Shown one piece after another: positions 25,784-55,877 of a DNA stretch of 64,000 bases. Within the stretch, counting starts at the first letter, position 1. Every line of letters begins with the position of its first letter. The notes under the pieces are model-generated. The model did no database searches and had not been told where the DNA came from. It saw only the letters and a list, made by a program, of their open reading frames with translations. A program made the position numbers and the translations under genes. Source of the DNA: Escherichia phage EO1; sequence record OQ223305.1. The stretch is one strand, 5' to 3'.

Positions 25784-25815
25784 GTTTACAAGAATGTTCT
25801 TCCATGGTACTATAC
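25784..25815 (+). promoter_or_regulatory. early promoter cassette with conserved 32-bp core
   Basis: GTTTAC 25784-25789; core GGTACTATACAACTATCAACTACTGATACGGA at 25806-25837. Confidence 0.65.
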
Positions 25816-25850
25816 AACTATCAACTACTGATACGGATTTGGATAATAAA

Positions 25851-44390: not shown

Positions 44391-44424
44391 AGTTTAAATT
44401 TTTTTTTTTCATAAAACTATATAC

Positions 44425-44467
44425 ATCAGTAGTTGATTATGGTACTATATCAATATCAACTACTGAT
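44425..44467 (+). promoter_or_regulatory. promoter-like stem-loop element: 13-bp perfect inverted repeat bracketing a -10 region
   Basis: ATCAGTAGTTGAT (44425-44437) and ATCAACTACTGAT (44455-44467) flank TATGGTACTATAT; variant of the 32-bp core; no GTTTAC -35. Confidence 0.5.
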
Positions 44468-44491
44468 ACAGAAAATAACTTGGAGAATAAA

Positions 44492-44761
44492 ATGGAAAAT
44501 TTAATTATCATCGAGCAATCTTTCAATGATTATGGTATGGCTTACGGTTATCGTGCGATAATGGAAGATTCTCGTGGATGTGTTATCGATATTGCTGAAT
44601 GTAAAGATTTACTGCAGCTTTTGAAGATTGTTCGCAAAAATTGGGATTGTGAAAACATTAAAGCTCGTGTTGTAACGGAAGAAGAAACTGTTTTTCATGA
44701 TGTAAAATTCGCCAAAGGTGCTGCTACTCTTCTGAAACGCATTGCTCCACTGTTCAATTAA
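44492..44761 (+). CDS. hypothetical protein (89 aa)
   Basis: ATG 44492 after TTGGAGAATAAA downstream of a promoter stem-loop. Confidence 0.4.
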   Translation: MENLIIIEQSFNDYGMAYGYRAIMEDSRGCVIDIAECKDLLQLLKIVRKNWDCENIKARVVTEEETVFHDVKFAKGAATLLKRIAPLFN

Positions 44762-50580: not shown

Positions 50581-51519
50581 ATGTACAATATTAAATGCCT
50601 GACCAAAAACGAACAAGCTGAAATTGTTAAACTGTATTCAAGCGGTAATTATACTCAGCAGGAATTGGCTGATTGGCAAGGTGTATCAGTTGATACAATC
50701 CGTCGTGTTTTGAAAAATGCTGAAGAAGCTAAACGCTCTAAAGTTACTATTAGCGGTGATATTACAGTTAAAGTTAATAGCGATGCAGTTATTGCTCCAG
50801 TTACTAAATCTGACATTATTTGGAATGCATCTAAAAAATTCATTTCGATTACTGTCGATGGTGTAACTTATAATGCAACACCTAATACTCATTCAAACTT
50901 TCAGGAAATTCTCAATCTGCTTGTAGCGGATAAGCTGGAAGAAGCGGCACAAAAAATTAATGTTCGTCGCGCTGTTGAAAAATATATTTCCGGCGATGTT
51001 CGAATTGAAGGTGGAAGCTTATTCTATCAAAATATTGAATTGCGGTCTGGTTTGGTTGATCGTATTCTTGATTCGATGGAAAAAGGCGAAAACTTTGAAT
51101 TTTATTTTCCGTTCTTGGAAAATCTGCTGGAAAACCCAAGCCAGAAAGCGGTATCTCGACTTTTTGATTTCTTGGTAGCAAACGATATTGAAATCACCGA
51201 AGATGGTTACTTCTATGCTTGGAAAGTAGTTCGTGACAACTACTTTGACTGTCACTCAAACACCTTTGATAACAGTCCGGGTAAAGTAGTTAAAATGCCG
51301 CGTACTCGTGTGAATGACGATGATACACAAACTTGTTCTCGTGGTCTGCATGTGTGTTCTAAATCTTATATTCGTCATTTTGGCAGTTCAACCAGCCGAG
51401 TTGTAAAAGTTAAAGTTCATCCTCGCGATGTAGTATCAATTCCGATTGATTACAACGACGCTAAAATGCGTACCTGCCAATACGAAGTAGTTGAAGACGT
51501 TACTGAACAATTTAAATAA
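50581..51519 (+). CDS. rIIB: rIIB protein (312 aa)
   Basis: 312 aa as T4 rIIB; follows rIIA. Confidence 0.85.
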   Translation: MYNIKCLTKNEQAEIVKLYSSGNYTQQELADWQGVSVDTIRRVLKNAEEAKRSKVTISGDITVKVNSDAVIAPVTKSDIIWNASKKFISITVDGVTYNATPNTHSNFQEILNLLVADKLEEAAQKINVRRAVEKYISGDVRIEGGSLFYQNIELRSGLVDRILDSMEKGENFEFYFPFLENLLENPSQKAVSRLFDFLVANDIEITEDGYFYAWKVVRDNYFDCHSNTFDNSPGKVVKMPRTRVNDDDTQTCSRGLHVCSKSYIRHFGSSTSRVVKVKVHPRDVVSIPIDYNDAKMRTCQYEVVEDVTEQFK

Positions 51520-51547: not shown

Positions 51548-51742
51548 ATGTTAGGTTATCAAGCACGAGTAAAAGAAGAATACGATCAATTAATGCTCAA
51601 AATTAATGCACTGAGTAAATTTTTAGAAAGCGCAAAGTTTCTAACGGTTAGTGCAGTTGAGCAAGAACTGTTACTTTCGCAGTTTATCTCAATGAAATCT
51701 TATGCTGAGTGTCTAGAGAAAAGAATTGCGCAATTCAAATAA
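51548..51742 (+). CDS. hypothetical protein (64 aa)
   Basis: Small ORF flanked by two GGGCTTCGGCCC terminator hairpins. Confidence 0.4.
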   Translation: MLGYQARVKEEYDQLMLKINALSKFLESAKFLTVSAVEQELLLSQFISMKSYAECLEKRIAQFK

Positions 51743-51824: not shown

Positions 51825-52382
51825 ATGCAGAAAACGAATCCGGGGCTACAGAGACTATTTCAGATTCCGACATTTACCCTATCGAACAGTGACTTGACTA
51901 GTGAAATGAAAGTCAAAATTGCTGATACAGCAAGATACTCTTTAAAACAAAACCCGAACCAGGATAAGGCAGAAGTTATCGAAAGATGCCGTATCGCTGT
52001 GTACGCAGAGTTTTTTGTAGCAGATTGGTTAAGCGGGTATGTTAATAAAGGTCAAGAAGATGTCGATGATCCGTACACATATGCATGGGATGTATTGGCG
52101 CATCCAAAATACTGTGGGCTTCGTGTAGAAGTCAAAACACATCAAACTGACTCACGATGGATTTCGGTAACAACCGGATGCAGCGGAGAGTATCCATACG
52201 GTTCTGGAATAAATCTAGGGCCCATTCTGAATCACCAAGTCGCTGACTGTATAATTATATTCAACACTAAAGAAATTCACCCAGGTGTCATCCAGTACAC
52301 TCCGAAATTCATCGGTGATAGAGAAGACCTTCGTAAGGTTGTAAGAAAAAGCAACTACAACGGATGGTATCTTTCCATTTAA
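51825..52382 (+). CDS. denB: endonuclease IV DenB-like (185 aa)
   Basis: 185 aa and position next to rIIB match T4 denB; assignment by size and synteny. Confidence 0.55.
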   Translation: MQKTNPGLQRLFQIPTFTLSNSDLTSEMKVKIADTARYSLKQNPNQDKAEVIERCRIAVYAEFFVADWLSGYVNKGQEDVDDPYTYAWDVLAHPKYCGLRVEVKTHQTDSRWISVTTGCSGEYPYGSGINLGPILNHQVADCIIIFNTKEIHPGVIQYTPKFIGDREDLRKVVRKSNYNGWYLSI

Positions 52383-52397
52383 AAATTTCACAAAACA

Positions 52398-52451
52398 GTT
52401 TACATACCACAAGGACCGTGGTACTATACAACTATCAACTACTGATACAGA
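52398..52451 (+). promoter_or_regulatory. chimeric early promoter cassette
   Basis: GTTTAC 52398-52403, CCACAAGGACCGTGG 52407-52421 (second cassette type) fused to the 32-bp core at 52420-52451. Confidence 0.6.
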
Positions 52452-52570
52452 TTTGGAGAATAAAATGAAAATCGCTGAGATTGAACTATGAGTTCATTAT
52501 GGTGGTGTTTTGTTTGGTTAATTAGTATTCCAGTAATTTGTTTAACATTTACTTTTGTGATGAGGTTATT

Positions 52571-52669
52571 ATGAAAATTTTGAATTCTGTACTTATTGCT
52601 TGTGCGTGGTGGGTTGCGCAAGTTTCAGCAGTAGTAGTTGGTATTCACATTTATTACGAATATTTTTAA
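52571..52669 (+). CDS. hypothetical hydrophobic peptide (32 aa)
   Basis: ATG after GAGG; single hydrophobic helix. Confidence 0.25.
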   Translation: MKILNSVLIACAWWVAQVSAVVVGIHIYYEYF

Positions 52670-52672
52670 AAA

Positions 52673-52737
52673 AGTTGTTTACAAGACTGTTCCTCTGTGG
52701 TATTATTACCCTATCAACTACGGAGGAACAGAAAATG
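52673..52737 (+). repeat. 65-bp promoter cassette, copy 2
   Basis: AGTTGTTTACAAGACTGTTCCTCTGTGGTA[TTATTACC]CTATCAACTACGGAGGAACAGAAAATG, versus CTATACAA in copy 1. Confidence 0.8.
52677..52731 (+). promoter_or_regulatory. early promoter cassette, duplicate of the 61-125 element
   Basis: GTTTAC 52677-52682; inverted repeat CTGTTCCTC (52687-52695) / GAGGAACAG (52723-52731); -10 block GGTATTATTACC. Confidence 0.65.
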
Positions 52738-52848
52738 AAAAAGATTGTTAAAGCTATATGGAATGTAGTTATAATACTAGTAGTTTTGAGTATATTCCCA
52801 ATCGTTTTAATGATTGATGTATTAAACGTTTACTTTGGATTTATGTGA
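52735..52848 (+). CDS. hypothetical hydrophobic peptide (37 aa)
   Basis: ATG 52735 after GGAGG, behind a duplicated promoter cassette; hydrophobic. Confidence 0.35.
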   Translation: MKKIVKAIWNVVIILVVLSIFPIVLMIDVLNVYFGFM

Positions 52849-52855
52849 GGAAAAT

Positions 52856-53053
52856 ATGAAGCGTAAACGCAGTGCTTTTACATTTATTGAATGGTTTTTC
52901 GATAATATTTTTCCGGCTTTATTCATTTTCATGCTGATTTTTGCCTTAGGTTCAGTTGTAGTTGGAATCTATTTGATGGCAGTAGTCGGAATGGATATTC
53001 ATCAAAATGGTTTAAAATCCGCGGTTGAAACAATTTGGAATGGTGTAAAATAA
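52856..53053 (+). CDS. hypothetical small membrane protein (65 aa)
   Basis: ATG 52856 after GAGGAAAAT; two hydrophobic segments. Confidence 0.4.
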   Translation: MKRKRSAFTFIEWFFDNIFPALFIFMLIFALGSVVVGIYLMAVVGMDIHQNGLKSAVETIWNGVK

Positions 53054-53156
53054 GCATTTGGTTTTATATTCTTATGTTTTACATTGGTGCAAATTTTCCA
53101 TATTGGATGGGATGGTCAACAACTGCATTTGGATTTTATACTCCTTGAGGTGAATT

Positions 53157-53372
53157 ATGAAAAGTTTTAAAGATGTAAAAGTTGGTGAAATTTTCTGTTT
53201 AGATAACGGTGATCAGTTAATTCGTATTTCACCTCTTAAGAGCACTAGCGAGAAACCGACAGTTAATGCTACTTTAGCAAATAACAGTAATGAACGTTTC
53301 TGTATTGAAAATGATACTGAAACTTATACCGTAGAAGAGTTTTGGGAATTGAGCGTCGACTGCGACGATTAA
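53157..53372 (+). CDS. hypothetical protein (71 aa)
   Basis: ATG after GAGGTGAATT. Confidence 0.4.
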   Translation: MKSFKDVKVGEIFCLDNGDQLIRISPLKSTSEKPTVNATLANNSNERFCIENDTETYTVEEFWELSVDCDD

Positions 53373-53432
53373 TTTAATGGCTGCGTGTATTCATGCGGCC
53401 TTGGAGTAGAAAATAATTTAGAGGAAATTAAT

Positions 53433-53891
53433 ATGAAATATATGACTGTTACTGATCTGAATAATGCAGGCGCTACTGTTATTGGTACAATCAAGGGCGG
53501 TGAGTGGTTTTTGGGAACTCCACATAAAGACATTTTATCTAAACCTGGATTTTACTTTTTAGTGAGCAAATTAGATGGTCGTCCATTTAGTAATCCATGT
53601 GTGTCTGCACGATTTTATGTAGGTAATCAACGTTCTAAGCAAGGATTCAGCGCAGTTCTAAGTCATATTCGTCAACGTCGGTCTCAGCTTGCACGTACTA
53701 TTGCAAATAACAATGTTCCATACACAGTATTTTATCTGCCTGCTTCTAAGATGAAACCTCTGACGACGGGATTTGGAAAAGGACAGTTAGCTTTAGCGTT
53801 TACTCGTAATCATCATTCCGAGTATCAAACACTTGAAGAAATGAATCGTATGTTGGCTGATAACTTTAAATTCGTTTTGCAGGCATATTAA
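53433..53891 (+). CDS. ndd: nucleoid disruption protein Ndd-like (152 aa)
   Basis: ATG 53433 after GAGGAAATTAAT; size and position (immediately upstream of stp) match T4 ndd. Confidence 0.55.
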
Positions 53892-53971
53892 TGAGTAATT
53901 TCCACAACGAACATGTGATGCAGTTCTATCGCAACAATCTTAAAACTAAAGGCGTCTTCGGACGCCAGTGA
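53891..53971 (+). CDS. stp: Stp peptide (26 aa)
   Basis: Translation [26 protein letters not shown] matches the T4 Stp peptide as recalled. Confidence 0.75.
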
Positions 53972-53978
53972 GGAAAAT

Positions 53979-54137
53979 ATGAATATCGCAAAATTATTAG
54001 GAGTTATTTCATTTATTTGTTGGATAGTAGCATGTGTTTTAACTATCTGTATCGATGCTAGCAGTGTGTTTTCACAAGCTTTAGCCCAGGGTATGTGTGC
54101 ATATTTAACATTTGTGTTGTTATCTACTAATGATTAA
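53979..54137 (+). CDS. ac: Ac (acriflavine sensitivity) small membrane protein (52 aa)
   Basis: 52-aa hydrophobic ORF between stp and gene 52, as T4 ac. Confidence 0.5.
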   Translation: MNIAKLLGVISFICWIVACVLTICIDASSVFSQALAQGMCAYLTFVLLSTND

Positions 54138-55806: not shown

Positions 55807-55860
55807 GTTTACAACCAAAGCATACTGTGGTACTATACAACTATCAACTACTGATACAGA
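55807..55860 (+). promoter_or_regulatory. early promoter of motA with conserved 32-bp core
   Basis: GTTTAC 55807-55812; core GGTACTATACAACTATCAACTACTGATACAGA at 55829-55860. Confidence 0.65.
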
Positions 55861-55877
55861 ATTACGGAGATTAGAAA

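Follow-up and report, generated by a model that had tools for sequence, protein, structure and literature searches.

Early membrane micro-genes between denB and ndd of Escherichia phage EO1 correspond to T4 ndd.6 to ndd.2

The initial annotation of a 64,000-nucleotide stretch of Escherichia phage EO1 (OQ223305.1), hereafter the window, drew attention to a cluster of three short ORFs of 32, 37 and 65 aa between denB and ndd. The window belongs to Tequatrovirus, and its segment from denB to ndd.1 is 100% identical to phage ECP52 and ~96% identical to T4 at the nucleotide level. All three ORFs are present where they had been placed, and the comparison with T4 ndd.1-ndd.6 that had been proposed identifies them as orthologues of ndd.5, ndd.4, and ndd.3 plus ndd.2a, the latter two in one 65-aa gene (Table 1). 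The region is the catalogued T4 set of early membrane micro-genes from ndd.6 to ndd.2, and as such is already known and ordinary; it probably represents the section with micro-genes in the non-essential "D region" of T-even phages, which extends from rIIB to gene 52. While the three ORFs do lie within the extent originally claimed (52571-53053), the cluster itself is wider, as ndd.6, an 8-codon ORF and a remnant of ndd.2 had been omitted. Five small genes are thus found here: ndd.6, ndd.5, ndd.4, the 65-aa gene (termed DUF7248 gene after its Pfam family) and a decayed ndd.2. Synteny is kept in Gaprivervirus, Dhakavirus, Kanagawavirus and Winklervirus. All ORFs match PHROG families, and no NCBIfam model matches any of the micro-peptides; the IMG/VR scan yielded 5 loci only.

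Table 1. Features of the micro-gene interval and its flanks, in window coordinates.
Feature	Position	Strand	Description
P1, T4-type early promoter	52398-52434	+	-35 GTTTAC 52398-52403; TG-extended -10 TACTAT 52422-52427; predicted start near 52434
Leader motif CTATCAACTAC after P1	52432-52442	+	Conserved
SD GGAG inside GGAGAATAAAA	52455-52465	+	Agrees exactly with the RegB/S1 cleavage consensus from the literature
8-codon ORF MKIAEIEL	52465-52491	+	Read as scar of an in-frame deletion in an 87-aa gene (PST ORF268 family); stop overlaps ndd.6 start as ATGA
ndd.6	52488-52574	+	28 aa, one predicted membrane helix; hydropathy maximum 2.33; PHROG 8851, E = 1.6e-17
ndd.5	52571-52669	+	32 aa, one predicted membrane helix; SD GAGG 52562-52565; hydropathy maximum 2.17; PHROG 5011, E = 3.6e-26
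P2, T4-type early promoter	52677-52713	+	-35 GTTTAC 52677-52682; TG-extended -10 TATTAT 52701-52706; predicted start near 52713
Leader motif CTATCAACTAC after P2	52711-52721	+	Followed by SD GGAGG 52722-52726
ndd.4	52735-52848	+	37 aa, one predicted membrane helix; SD GGAGG 52722-52726, 8 nt before ATG; PHROG 3098, E = 2.3e-21
DUF7248 gene	52856-53053	+	65 aa; T4 ndd.3 + ndd.2a as one gene; SD GAGG 52847-52850, 5 nt before ATG
ndd.2 remnant	53035-53148	+	Start-less; TTG without SD, or internal ATG at 53074, remains; PHROG 4135, E = 2.2e-23
ndd.1	53157-53372	+	71 aa, acidic, soluble (GRAVY -0.54); last cistron of the packed string; SD GAGG overlaps ndd.2 stop; PHROG 2183, E = 2.5e-38
G+C-rich hairpin closing the string before ndd	53373-53405	+	-16.8 kcal/mol, z = -3.8; annotated as stem_loop in X75802

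The genes are arranged in two compact strings, both preceded by a canonical T4 early promoter. In the first, the 8-codon ORF, ndd.6 and ndd.5 are linked through ATGA overlaps, the ndd.5 start overlapping the ndd.6 stop; ndd.6 lacks a separate SD, and an overlap of the same kind couples it to the ORF before it, as is also the case for its homologue in JS98 (orf261). The second string runs from ndd.4 through the DUF7248 gene and the ndd.2 remnant to ndd.1, with every SD within or beside the previous stop codon. As originally noted, the ORFs of 32, 37 and 65 aa each possess their own SD (GAGG, GGAGG and GAGG, located 5, 8 and 5 nt before the ATG, respectively).

The two promoter cassettes that had been reported are likewise both present, 279 bp apart, and coincide base for base with the promoter features at 1017-1053 (P1) and 1296-1332 (P2) of the T4 record X75802. 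A generic sigma-70 scan returned 13 promoters against 11.5 expected, with no excess over chance; a T4-specific pattern matched 21 times where chance predicts 2.0, almost always on the + strand. P1 and P2 both fit GTTTAC-N14-GTGGTAnTAT with 0 mismatches, carry the A/T-rich block upstream of the -35 element that is a criterion for T4 early promoters, and conform to the published PST/T4 consensus TTTACW-N17-TAYWAT (PMC2839356, PMC4122927). The unit of promoter, leader and SD occurs in six near-identical copies within the window, and the pairs 65/52677 and 25784/52398 also have leader and SD in common. In the P2 cassette, ~60 nt, SD and ATG included, are nearly identical to the cassette at 65-125 (nrdC.8); independently, CRISPRi-ART off-target tables pair nrdC.8 with ndd.4, and imm.1 with ndd.6 (PMC11879866). 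The cassette is a general T4 early repeat, found in front of motA, nrdC.8 and further ordinary genes as well. The second cassette heads ndd.4 here and, as a P2-type cassette, in Gaprivervirus and Dhakavirus too. The first is not reserved for micro-peptides: in most relatives it lies before a soluble-protein gene of 87 aa, one of 68 aa, or both.

Gene gain and loss occur immediately downstream of the first cassette. The spacer between denB and ndd.1 measures 763 nt here, 775 nt in T4 and IME340, and ~988, 1010 or 1220 nt in other relatives, and the indels among close relatives sit directly downstream of P1. Because of these indels, per-site variability at P1 and its leader is unreliable in the 17-sequence alignment and was left out of the results. 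At the position of the 8-codon ORF, EC128, fPS-65, AR1, Lutter, slur02 and PST encode MKFKF...NEMKIAEIEL followed by a stop, with an identical SD and ATGA junction, while the short form is common to T4, IME340, T2 and RB27; from this sequence comparison we read the 8-codon ORF as a deletion scar. Cassette-associated shuffling has been illustrated with the denB-ndd locus before (Fig. 6A of PMC4122927). The exchange of ndd.4/.5 for ORF268/269 described there is better understood as an insertion or deletion, because PST keeps intact, unannotated copies of ndd.6 and ndd.5, and T4 and ECP52 keep the 8-codon ORF268 scar.

The SD in front of the scar belongs to one of only 2 exact matches to the RegB consensus in 64 kb. 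The RegB/S1 target is given as GGAGRAYARAA, 11 nt long and single-stranded, with an optimum of GGAGAAUAAAA (PMC1702504). The leader holding GGAGAATAAAA is predicted to be unstructured, and this site is a candidate for RegB cleavage. The second cassette has only a partial match, GGAGGAACAGA, with G at position 5; a G at this position (GGAGG) is reported to enhance cleavage.

The 65-aa ORF matches Pfam PF23906 (DUF7248) over its full length with 69.4 bits against a gathering cut-off of 27, residues 6-63 aligning to profile positions 4-57 of 58. It comprises an N-terminal KRKR, one long helix, a kink at N51-G52 and, at the C-terminus, a short conserved helix bearing the motif GLKSxVETIWNG, and thereby follows the family plan of a basic N-terminus, one membrane helix and a C-terminal GLKSVVExIWNG; G52, K54, W61 and G63 are invariant in an 18-member alignment. 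AlphaFold2 predicts helices at 6-51 and 53-62 (pLDDT 87). The same architecture is present in 28 representative clusters of 47-76-aa proteins, and in Winklervirus (Serratia phage) the gene also lies between denB and ndd. While the T4 reference splits the gene into ndd.3 and ndd.2a, it is a single 65-aa ORF here, in all re-sequenced versions of T4 and in 456 records. The split is a one-base error in the reference sequence; a real strain difference was rejected, as the frameshift is carried only by X75802 and two reference-genome copies. The "periplasmic" Ndd.2a corresponds to the last 40 residues of the 65-aa membrane protein, and it may be noted that the label "periplasmic protein" attached to DUF7248 descends from this truncated T4 annotation.

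We also considered whether the DUF7248 tail is homologous to the Trp repeats of tape-measure proteins, which is unsupported (hhalign probability 14.6% over 15 columns). Matches of the DUF7248 HMM in proteins of 820-976 aa arise from 5-10 short stretches, and the two such proteins that were scanned (P0011 and P0016) both carry PhageMin_Tail.

Within the cluster, ndd.4 has the widest conservation: tblastn retrieved it from 595 phage records, ~100 of them from other genera at 58-64% identity. The Pfam copy that was scanned has no ndd.4 model; precomputed hits place PF26889 on a fusion containing ndd.4. A tblastn search with ndd.5 returned no matches, not even to itself, for which low-complexity masking is the probable cause. 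A 12-nt deletion relative to T4 took away the ATGATG start of ndd.2, and since only an SD-less TTG or an internal ATG is left, ndd.2 is probably not expressed in this phage. In most relatives examined, ndd.2 is intact at 35-36 aa, and in slur02 it is frameshifted; furthermore, natural deletions fuse neighbouring micro-ORFs. The loss of ndd.2 here, the slur02 frameshift and these fusions therefore indicate that individual members are expendable even in nature.

Hydrophobic ORFs arise readily from AT-rich sequence, and it could be argued that the micro-ORFs are chance frames in an AT-rich, T-rich spacer that in reality serves regulation through its promoters and leaders, particularly as proteomics did not see the peptides, knock-down gave no phenotype, and annotators disagree: ECP52 annotates only two of the ORFs, and an 80-aa ORF reading across the second promoter is annotated in several records. 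The substitution pattern already contradicts this reading. Across the five micro-ORFs, synonymous and non-synonymous changes are found at 42:24 in frame versus 12:52 and 10:54 out of frame (Fisher, p = 2e-7 and 2e-8; p = 4e-5 and 1e-5 for the three ORFs initially described). Individually, the ratios are 4:1 versus 2:3 and 0:5 for ndd.6, 8:3 versus 1:9 and 0:10 for ndd.5, 19:11 versus 5:25 and 7:23 for the DUF7248 ORF, and 9:6 versus 1:13 and 2:12 for ndd.2. For ndd.4, the within-genus ratio (2:3) is uninformative; against VR26, phage 212 and JS98, which represent three other genera, its dN/dS is 0.12-0.20 with saturated synonymous sites, and pS reaches 0.61-0.80 in frame versus 0.11-0.33 out of frame. 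Moreover, almost all of 17 relatives retain the open frames, each start codon is served either by an SD at the proper distance or by ATGA coupling, and the ORFs belong to Pfam and PHROG families with synteny in distant genera. Chance frames are thus hardly credible, and the pattern of substitutions shows the micro-ORFs to be conserved protein-coding genes under purifying selection.

The description of the products as small membrane peptides agrees with Kyte-Doolittle 19-residue maxima of 2.17-3.05 in the three ORFs. They had been said to contain one or two helices; the hydrophobic helix is there, whereas a second is not, as each has one uncharged run of 21-30 residues. Every peptide has one strongly hydrophobic segment, which in ndd.5, ndd.4 and DUF7248 follows a basic N-terminus. 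The outer-membrane and periplasmic labels of the T4 and PHROG annotations do not fit: judged from hydropathy, nearly the whole of each 28-37-aa peptide is one hydrophobic helix, without beta-barrel character, and a cleavable signal peptide is unlikely, as no mature part would remain after any signal. The peptides are best described as putative single-pass inner-membrane proteins, with insertion and topology assigned from hydropathy and the positive-inside rule: the N-terminus is predicted to be cytoplasmic for ndd.5, for ndd.4 (KK..K) and for DUF7248.

In T4, transcripts of ndd.2 to ndd.6 belong to the early class by RNA-seq (PMC9697503, Table S2), and Ndd.1 was detected early by proteomics in the same study. 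Detectable translation, a phenotype and conservation had been proposed as tests of the cluster. The genes are clearly conserved, whereas the micro-peptides went undetected in T4 proteomics (PMC9697503), and knock-down of T4 in laboratory E. coli was without phenotype, ndd.2 to ndd.6 all being scored 'Not Fit' in the CRISPRi-ART screen (PMC11879866); no T4 ribosome profiling was found in the literature searched. Neither the failed proteomic detection nor the null knock-down rules out translation or function. Phages with the sa-delta-9 deletion, and with other deletions of the D region, are viable (PMC6071114, PMC12115623).

Considering these data together, we regard the cluster as a set of conserved early micro-genes for predicted single-helix membrane peptides, which are likely expressed from two early promoters and would act as accessory modifiers of the host envelope. 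Both strings would be transcribed by host sigma-70 RNA polymerase in the first minutes of infection, and the peptides would insert as single-pass inner-membrane proteins, with the conserved DUF7248 tail at the periplasmic face; RegB cleavage in GGAG ribosome-binding sites would then cut expression short. Their role would be of the host-range type, and they would take no part in replication or assembly. As a candidate, the most concrete is an involvement in the phage-induced change of phospholipid synthesis that is lost in sa-delta-9, and the main alternative would be protection against, or exclusion of, membrane-acting competitors.

The sa-delta-9 deletion, which spans 52.1 to denB and includes ndd.1-ndd.6, abolishes the stimulation of phosphatidylglycerol synthesis, which is lost in the overlapping rII-delta-DD2 deletion too and depends on a protein synthesised in the first 5 min; in that study, hydrophobic products of the D region are singled out as unexplained (PMC6071114). 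The micro-peptides, which are transcribed early, have a predicted inner-membrane location and share the interval with no other gene of evident lipid link, could be specific phage factors that bind inner-membrane lipid-synthesis or regulatory proteins and re-route host phospholipid synthesis (phosphatidylglycerol up, phosphatidylethanolamine down). However, the phenotype maps to a 3.4-kb interval and was measured in phages with several other mutations, and the deletion takes denB, ndd, stp, ac and 52.1 with it; the phenotype is therefore not assignable to the micro-ORFs. The products of ac and 52.1, genes which lie 0.9 kb downstream with the same transcription direction, are membrane proteins as well, loss of denB or ndd could act indirectly, and no peptide resembles any lipid-enzyme regulator, so that we consider such dedicated lipid factors distinctly unlikely. 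The specific version in which ndd.4 and DUF7248, together with ndd.5 and ndd.6, form an early T4 function bound to inner-membrane lipid enzymes, with the periplasm-facing DUF7248 tail GLKSVVETIWNG as effector surface, appears quite improbable.

A rather unlikely alternative is that the peptides serve in defence or counter-defence, excluding super-infecting or competing phages at the envelope as T4 Imm and Sp do, or neutralising membrane-acting abortive infection of the host as the nearby rIIA/rIIB do against RexAB. The genes are immediate-early and dispensable in the laboratory, and they lie in a hyperplastic stretch where genes often come and go (PMC4122927); the neighbours rIIB, stp and ac are all host-interaction genes, and the conserved part of DUF7248 is its predicted extracytoplasmic tail. 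No matching phenotype has been reported, the faint likeness of this tail to tape-measure Trp repeats is not significant, and ndd.4 and DUF7248 are conserved across genera, while arms-race genes tend towards quick turnover. A length of 28-37 aa, a single hydrophobic helix, and expression at once after infection with a putative RegB switch-off would also suit membrane-damaging toxins, type I-like in size and shape (Hok, TisB), that depolarise the inner membrane for host shut-down. However, T4 requires an energised membrane in early infection, none of the peptides matches any toxin family, and their knock-down was without effect on phage fitness. Hence, even though many immediate-early T4 small genes were lethal to the host when cloned (Kutter et al.), we hold a toxin role to be very improbable and retain accessory envelope modification as the preferred interpretation.

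As the T4 literature and databases already cover the ORFs, the promoters and the plasticity of the locus, the value of the cluster as a discovery is small. The substitution analysis nevertheless establishes all five micro-ORFs as real genes despite the lack of proteomic detection, and T4 ndd.3 and ndd.2a are merged into one DUF7248 membrane protein, with their split traced to the reference error. The odd 8-codon ORF is explained as a deletion scar that would keep a RegB-sensitive ribosome site and the coupling to ndd.6. Furthermore, a decades-old T4 phosphatidylglycerol phenotype is narrowed to a short list of small membrane peptides.

Among known systems, the T4 proteins Imm, Sp, Ac and RI are similar in being small, early, located in membrane or periplasm and non-essential in the laboratory; they differ in having known roles, and the ndd.x peptides are shorter (28-65 aa) and not known to be related to them in sequence. 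The cassettes resemble PeSL cassettes (Arbiol et al. 2010, PMC2839356; Comeau et al. 2014, PMC4122927) in the repeated early promoter, SD and start codon, in the hyperplastic setting and in flanking gene insertions and deletions. PeSL cassettes, in contrast, have a stem-loop before the promoter, whereas no convincing one was found upstream of P1 or P2, where the 66 nt are no more stably folded than shuffled sequence (-9.5 kcal/mol, z = -1.29, and -7.8 kcal/mol, z = -0.23, respectively). With early T4 mRNAs under RegB/S1 control, such as motB (Durand et al. 2006, PMC1702504), the first cassette shares the exactly optimal target and the predicted single-stranded leader, while the SDs of ndd.5 and DUF7248 differ from that type in being GAGG, without the obligatory GGA. 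From Pfam DUF7248, no difference was found in the 65-aa ORF. The closest correspondence is with T4 itself: the annotated 42-aa start of T4 ndd.4 uses an upstream ATG that is ACG here, and ndd.6, ndd.5, ndd.4, ndd.3, ndd.2a and ndd.2 all have orthologues in the same order, with two promoters in common and the same flanks, denB upstream and ndd.1, ndd, stp, ac, 52.1 and 52 downstream.

The interval between denB and ndd.1 corresponds to the micro-ORF cluster of the T4 'D region', whose gene order the surrounding part of the window shares. Its 781 bases (52380-53160) match Escherichia phage ECP52 at 100% identity, and phage T4 along with over 450 other Tequatrovirus genomes at approximately 96%. 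T4 has this region between denB and ndd.1/ndd, annotated as ndd.6, ndd.5, ndd.4, ndd.3, ndd.2a, and ndd.2. While the initial annotation, which suggested comparison with T4 ndd.1-ndd.6, was accurate, the feature is already known and annotated in T-even genomes. All three ORFs that it described (32, 37, and 65 aa) were recovered, each with its own SD. Of the one or two hydrophobic helices proposed for each, one stands and a second does not: each ORF encodes a single strongly hydrophobic segment, with Kyte-Doolittle 19-residue maxima of 2.17 (ndd.5), 3.05 (ndd.4), and 2.71 (65-aa ORF) and uncharged runs of 27, 21, and 30 residues, respectively. Moreover, the proposed bounds of the cluster (52571-53053) were too narrow, leaving out an 8-codon ORF, ndd.6, and ndd.2.

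Features of the D region and copies of the early cassette (positions in the window)
Feature	Position	Size	Remarks
rIIB	50581-51519		
denB.1	51548-51742	64 aa	
denB	51825-52382		
First early promoter	52398		
RegB consensus site	52455-52465		GGAGAATAAAA
8-codon ORF	52465-52491	8 codons	MKIAEIEL; SD GGAG at 52455-52458, directly after first promoter
ndd.6	52488-52574	28 aa	start overlaps 8-codon ORF stop as ATGA; stop overlaps ndd.5 start as ATGA
ndd.5	52571-52669	32 aa	SD GAGG, 5 nt upstream
Second early promoter	52677		
ndd.4	52735-52848	37 aa	SD GGAGG, 8 nt upstream
DUF7248 ORF	52856-53053	65 aa	SD GAGG, 5 nt upstream, overlapping ndd.4 stop
DUF7248 C-terminal tail	53009-53050		GLKSAVETIWNG
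ndd.2 remnant	53035-53148		TTG (53035) or internal ATG (53074)
ndd.1	53157-53372		
Hairpin	53373-53405		-16.8 kcal/mol, z = -3.8
ndd	starts 53433		
stp	53891-53971		
ac	53979-54137		
52.1	54112-54270		
Gene 52	starts 54275		
Other cassette copies	65-125; 25784-25845; 44419-44492; 55807-55877		early promoter-leader-SD
Second RegB consensus site	44482-44492		in cassette copy 44419

Several observations concern the neighboring features. The product of denB.1 matches Pfam PF21825 (E = 4e-19; crAss001_48 related, 'Sequestin' in precomputed hits), and the place of this gene between rIIB and denB is kept in Winklervirus. Between ndd.1 and ndd, a strong G+C-rich hairpin coincides with the stem-loop in the X75802 annotation (T4D ndd sequence); it lacks the T-run that usually marks a terminator and so may serve in processing or stability. 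In several RefSeq/GenBank records, including those of Yersinia phage PST, AR1, and RB27, ndd.4 or ndd.2 is called 'naphthalene 1,2-dioxygenase', seemingly an annotation artefact that stems from the gene symbol 'ndd' and not a homology call.

The micro-ORFs are coding, as an alignment of the denB to ndd.1 interval from 17 T-even sequences (the window's own, that of ECP52, and 16 others) demonstrated after classification of each variant codon. Summed over five ORFs, synonymous and nonsynonymous changes numbered 42:24 in frame, compared to 12:52 in frame +1 and 10:54 in frame +2 (p = 2e-7 and 2e-8, Fisher's exact test). In the same order of frames, the counts were 4:1, 2:3, and 0:5 for ndd.6; 8:3, 1:9, and 0:10 for ndd.5; 19:11, 5:25, and 7:23 for the 65-aa ORF; 9:6, 1:13, and 2:12 for ndd.2; and 2:3, 3:2, and 1:4 for ndd.4, for which they are uninformative because this gene hardly varies within the genus. 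A tblastn search matched ndd.4 in 595 phage records, approximately 100 of them from other genera at 58-64% identity, and its dN/dS was 0.12-0.20 against Gaprivervirus VR26, phage 212, and Dhakavirus JS98. With Kanagawavirus Q7622 added, where dS is saturated, pS was 0.61-0.80 and pN 0.22-0.24 in frame, compared to a pS of 0.11-0.33 in the shifted frames of the same four comparisons. Furthermore, JS98 has an ndd.6 homologue coupled to its upstream ORF via the same overlap, Q7622 has an ndd.2-like peptide, and every ORF matches a PHROG family. The possibility, raised in the initial annotation, that the peptides are unconserved therefore does not hold.

Start sites and reading frames in existing records deserve comment. 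The ndd.4 frame is open upstream across the second promoter (window 52600-52848; fPS-65 locus 760-1002; AR1 locus 748-990), and therefore an 80-aa ORF is annotated in some records (fPS-65 g264c, AR1_277, PHROG 28140), which almost certainly extends the 37-aa ndd.4 too far upstream. The 42-aa ndd.4 start of T4 is doubtful as well: it is an upstream ATG without an SD, at most ~10 nt from the inferred transcription start, and reads ACG in the window. T4 ndd.3 (26 aa) and ndd.2a (40 aa) are separated by one G missing after ATGAA (T4 locus L001, 1976-2172; window 52856-53053). The 43-mer with this deletion occurs in X75802, AF158101, and NC_000866 only, and the intact version in 456 records. The re-sequenced T4 genome MT984581 is intact, with a 198-nt CDS annotated, and the locus of another (KJ477684) is of equal length. 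By these record comparisons, the split is an error made in the 1994 sequencing, from which the reference genome took it over.

The spacer from the denB stop to the ndd.1 SD measures 763 nt in this phage; 775 nt in T4 and IME340; ~988 nt in T2 and RB27, with an additional 68-aa ORF; ~1010 nt in EC128, fPS-65, AR1, Lutter, and five IMG/VR contigs, with an additional 87-aa ORF; and ~1220 nt in slur02 and PST, which have both. The 87-aa protein, whose gene is present in most relatives, starts with MKFKF and ends with NEMKIAEIEL, and its SD and ATGA junction to ndd.6 are identical to those of the 8-codon ORF. The latter is thus a scar: an in-frame deletion ran from one ATGAAA repeat to another and spared both the ribosome-binding site and the ndd.6 coupling. 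Downstream of the 65-aa ORF, a 12-nt deletion took away the ATGATG start used by T4 ndd.2, leaving only a TTG without an SD or an internal ATG; in slur02, ndd.2 is frameshifted, and the gene seems to be decaying in some lineages. PST retains intact, unannotated copies of ndd.6 and ndd.5 on its reverse strand, flanked by ORF268 and Ndd.4; what Comeau et al. 2014 (Fig. 6A) drew as an 'exchange of ndd.4/.5 for ORF268/269' therefore seems to mean simply that ORF268/269 were inserted or deleted.

Along its entire length, the 65-aa protein fits Pfam DUF7248 (69.4 bits, cut-off 27). When 1.84 billion representative proteins were searched with a profile, 28 clusters emerged, nearly all of 47-76 aa and built alike: the N-terminus is basic, a single membrane helix follows, and a GLKSVVExIWNG motif stands at the C-terminus. 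The named members belong to T4-like phages of Serratia, Aeromonas, and Escherichia. Between denB and ndd, Serratia phage CHI14 and a related contig carry DUF7248 either alone or with one other ORF, making it the conserved core of this interval. AlphaFold2, run on the alignment from this search, predicted two helices, a long one (6-51) and a short one (53-62), with a kink at N51-G52 between them (mean pLDDT 87). By the positive-inside rule, the N-terminal KRKR would place the conserved tail on the periplasmic side. This tail resembles repeated ETVWNGIKS units placed after membrane segments of siphophage tape-measure proteins (P0011, P0016); with a profile comparison probability of just 14.6%, this is a motif resemblance and not demonstrated homology. 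Natural in-frame deletion fusions join the ndd.4 or ndd.5 helix to the DUF7248 tail (P0007, Shigella phage Sf25; P0008, a T4 record), suggesting that these helices are interchangeable anchors for it.

Early transcription and dispensability are known from the T4 literature. Transcripts of T4 ndd.2 to ndd.6 belong to the early class, and their proteins were undetected, while Ndd and Ndd.1 were detected (PMC9697503 Table S2). The whole D region is deletable: phages with sa-delta-4, 5, or 9, NB5060, or the T4GT7 deletion are viable, with a yield of approximately half of wild type for sa-delta-9. Each of ndd.2 to ndd.6 scored 'Not Fit' in a genome-wide T4 CRISPRi-ART knock-down. No paper in our literature search ascribed a role to any member of the ndd.2-ndd.6 set. 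Kutter et al. described several products of the D region as hydrophobic. We propose that host RNA polymerase would fire both early promoters immediately after infection and that two tightly coupled cistron strings would be translated, their peptides probably inserting as single-pass inner-membrane proteins; RegB would then inactivate the GGAG ribosome sites. The peptides would act as accessory host-envelope modifiers. The SD retained at the scar lies within an exact optimal RegB/S1 target of Durand et al. 2006, and the consensus has only two exact matches in 64 kb, this one included; the site sits in an unstructured leader, and the second cassette has GGAGG at its ribosome site, a G at position 5 enhancing RegB cleavage (Durand et al. 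2006). This suggests a short immediate-early expression pulse cut off by RegB. The stimulation of phosphatidylglycerol synthesis by T4 is lost in sa-delta-9 and the overlapping rII-delta-DD2, the sole phenotype mapped here without a known-gene explanation. A change in phospholipid synthesis is accordingly our leading specific candidate for what such envelope modifiers do, an unlikely one nonetheless; counter-defence or exclusion, placed next, is doubtful even as a broad class, and membrane toxicity, placed after it, is very unlikely.

Both promoters match the T4 early pattern GTTTAC-N14-GTGGTAnTAT with 0 mismatches and coincide exactly with two promoter features in X75802, bearing out the two cassettes of the initial annotation; a generic sigma-70 scan of the window did not by itself separate promoters from chance. 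In the window, 21 occurrences of the pattern were counted against 2.0 expected, almost all on the + strand, and CTATCAACTAC, downstream of the -10 in both promoters, occurs 8 times with at most 1 mismatch (~1 expected). Promoter-region alignment revealed six closely related copies (65, 25784, 44419, 52398, 52677, and 55807), of which the pairs 65/52677 and 25784/52398 are near-identical from the -35 across leader, SD, and start codon. Independently, the off-target tables of CRISPRi-ART link ndd.4 to the nrdC.8 leader and ndd.6 to that of imm.1. Ordinary genes lie behind the other copies: a 175-aa ORF (length match to T4 nrdC.8), a 78-aa secreted-looking protein, and motA. Therefore, the cassettes serve T4 early expression in general and are not peculiar to the tiny membrane peptides, for which the initial annotation noted a high cassette density. 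While the stem-loop of the promoter-early stem-loop (PeSL) cassette is absent upstream of both promoters here (z = -1.29 and -0.23), the concept is the same as that of PeSL (Arbiol et al. 2010; Comeau et al. 2014), and Fig. 6A of the latter depicts this very locus.
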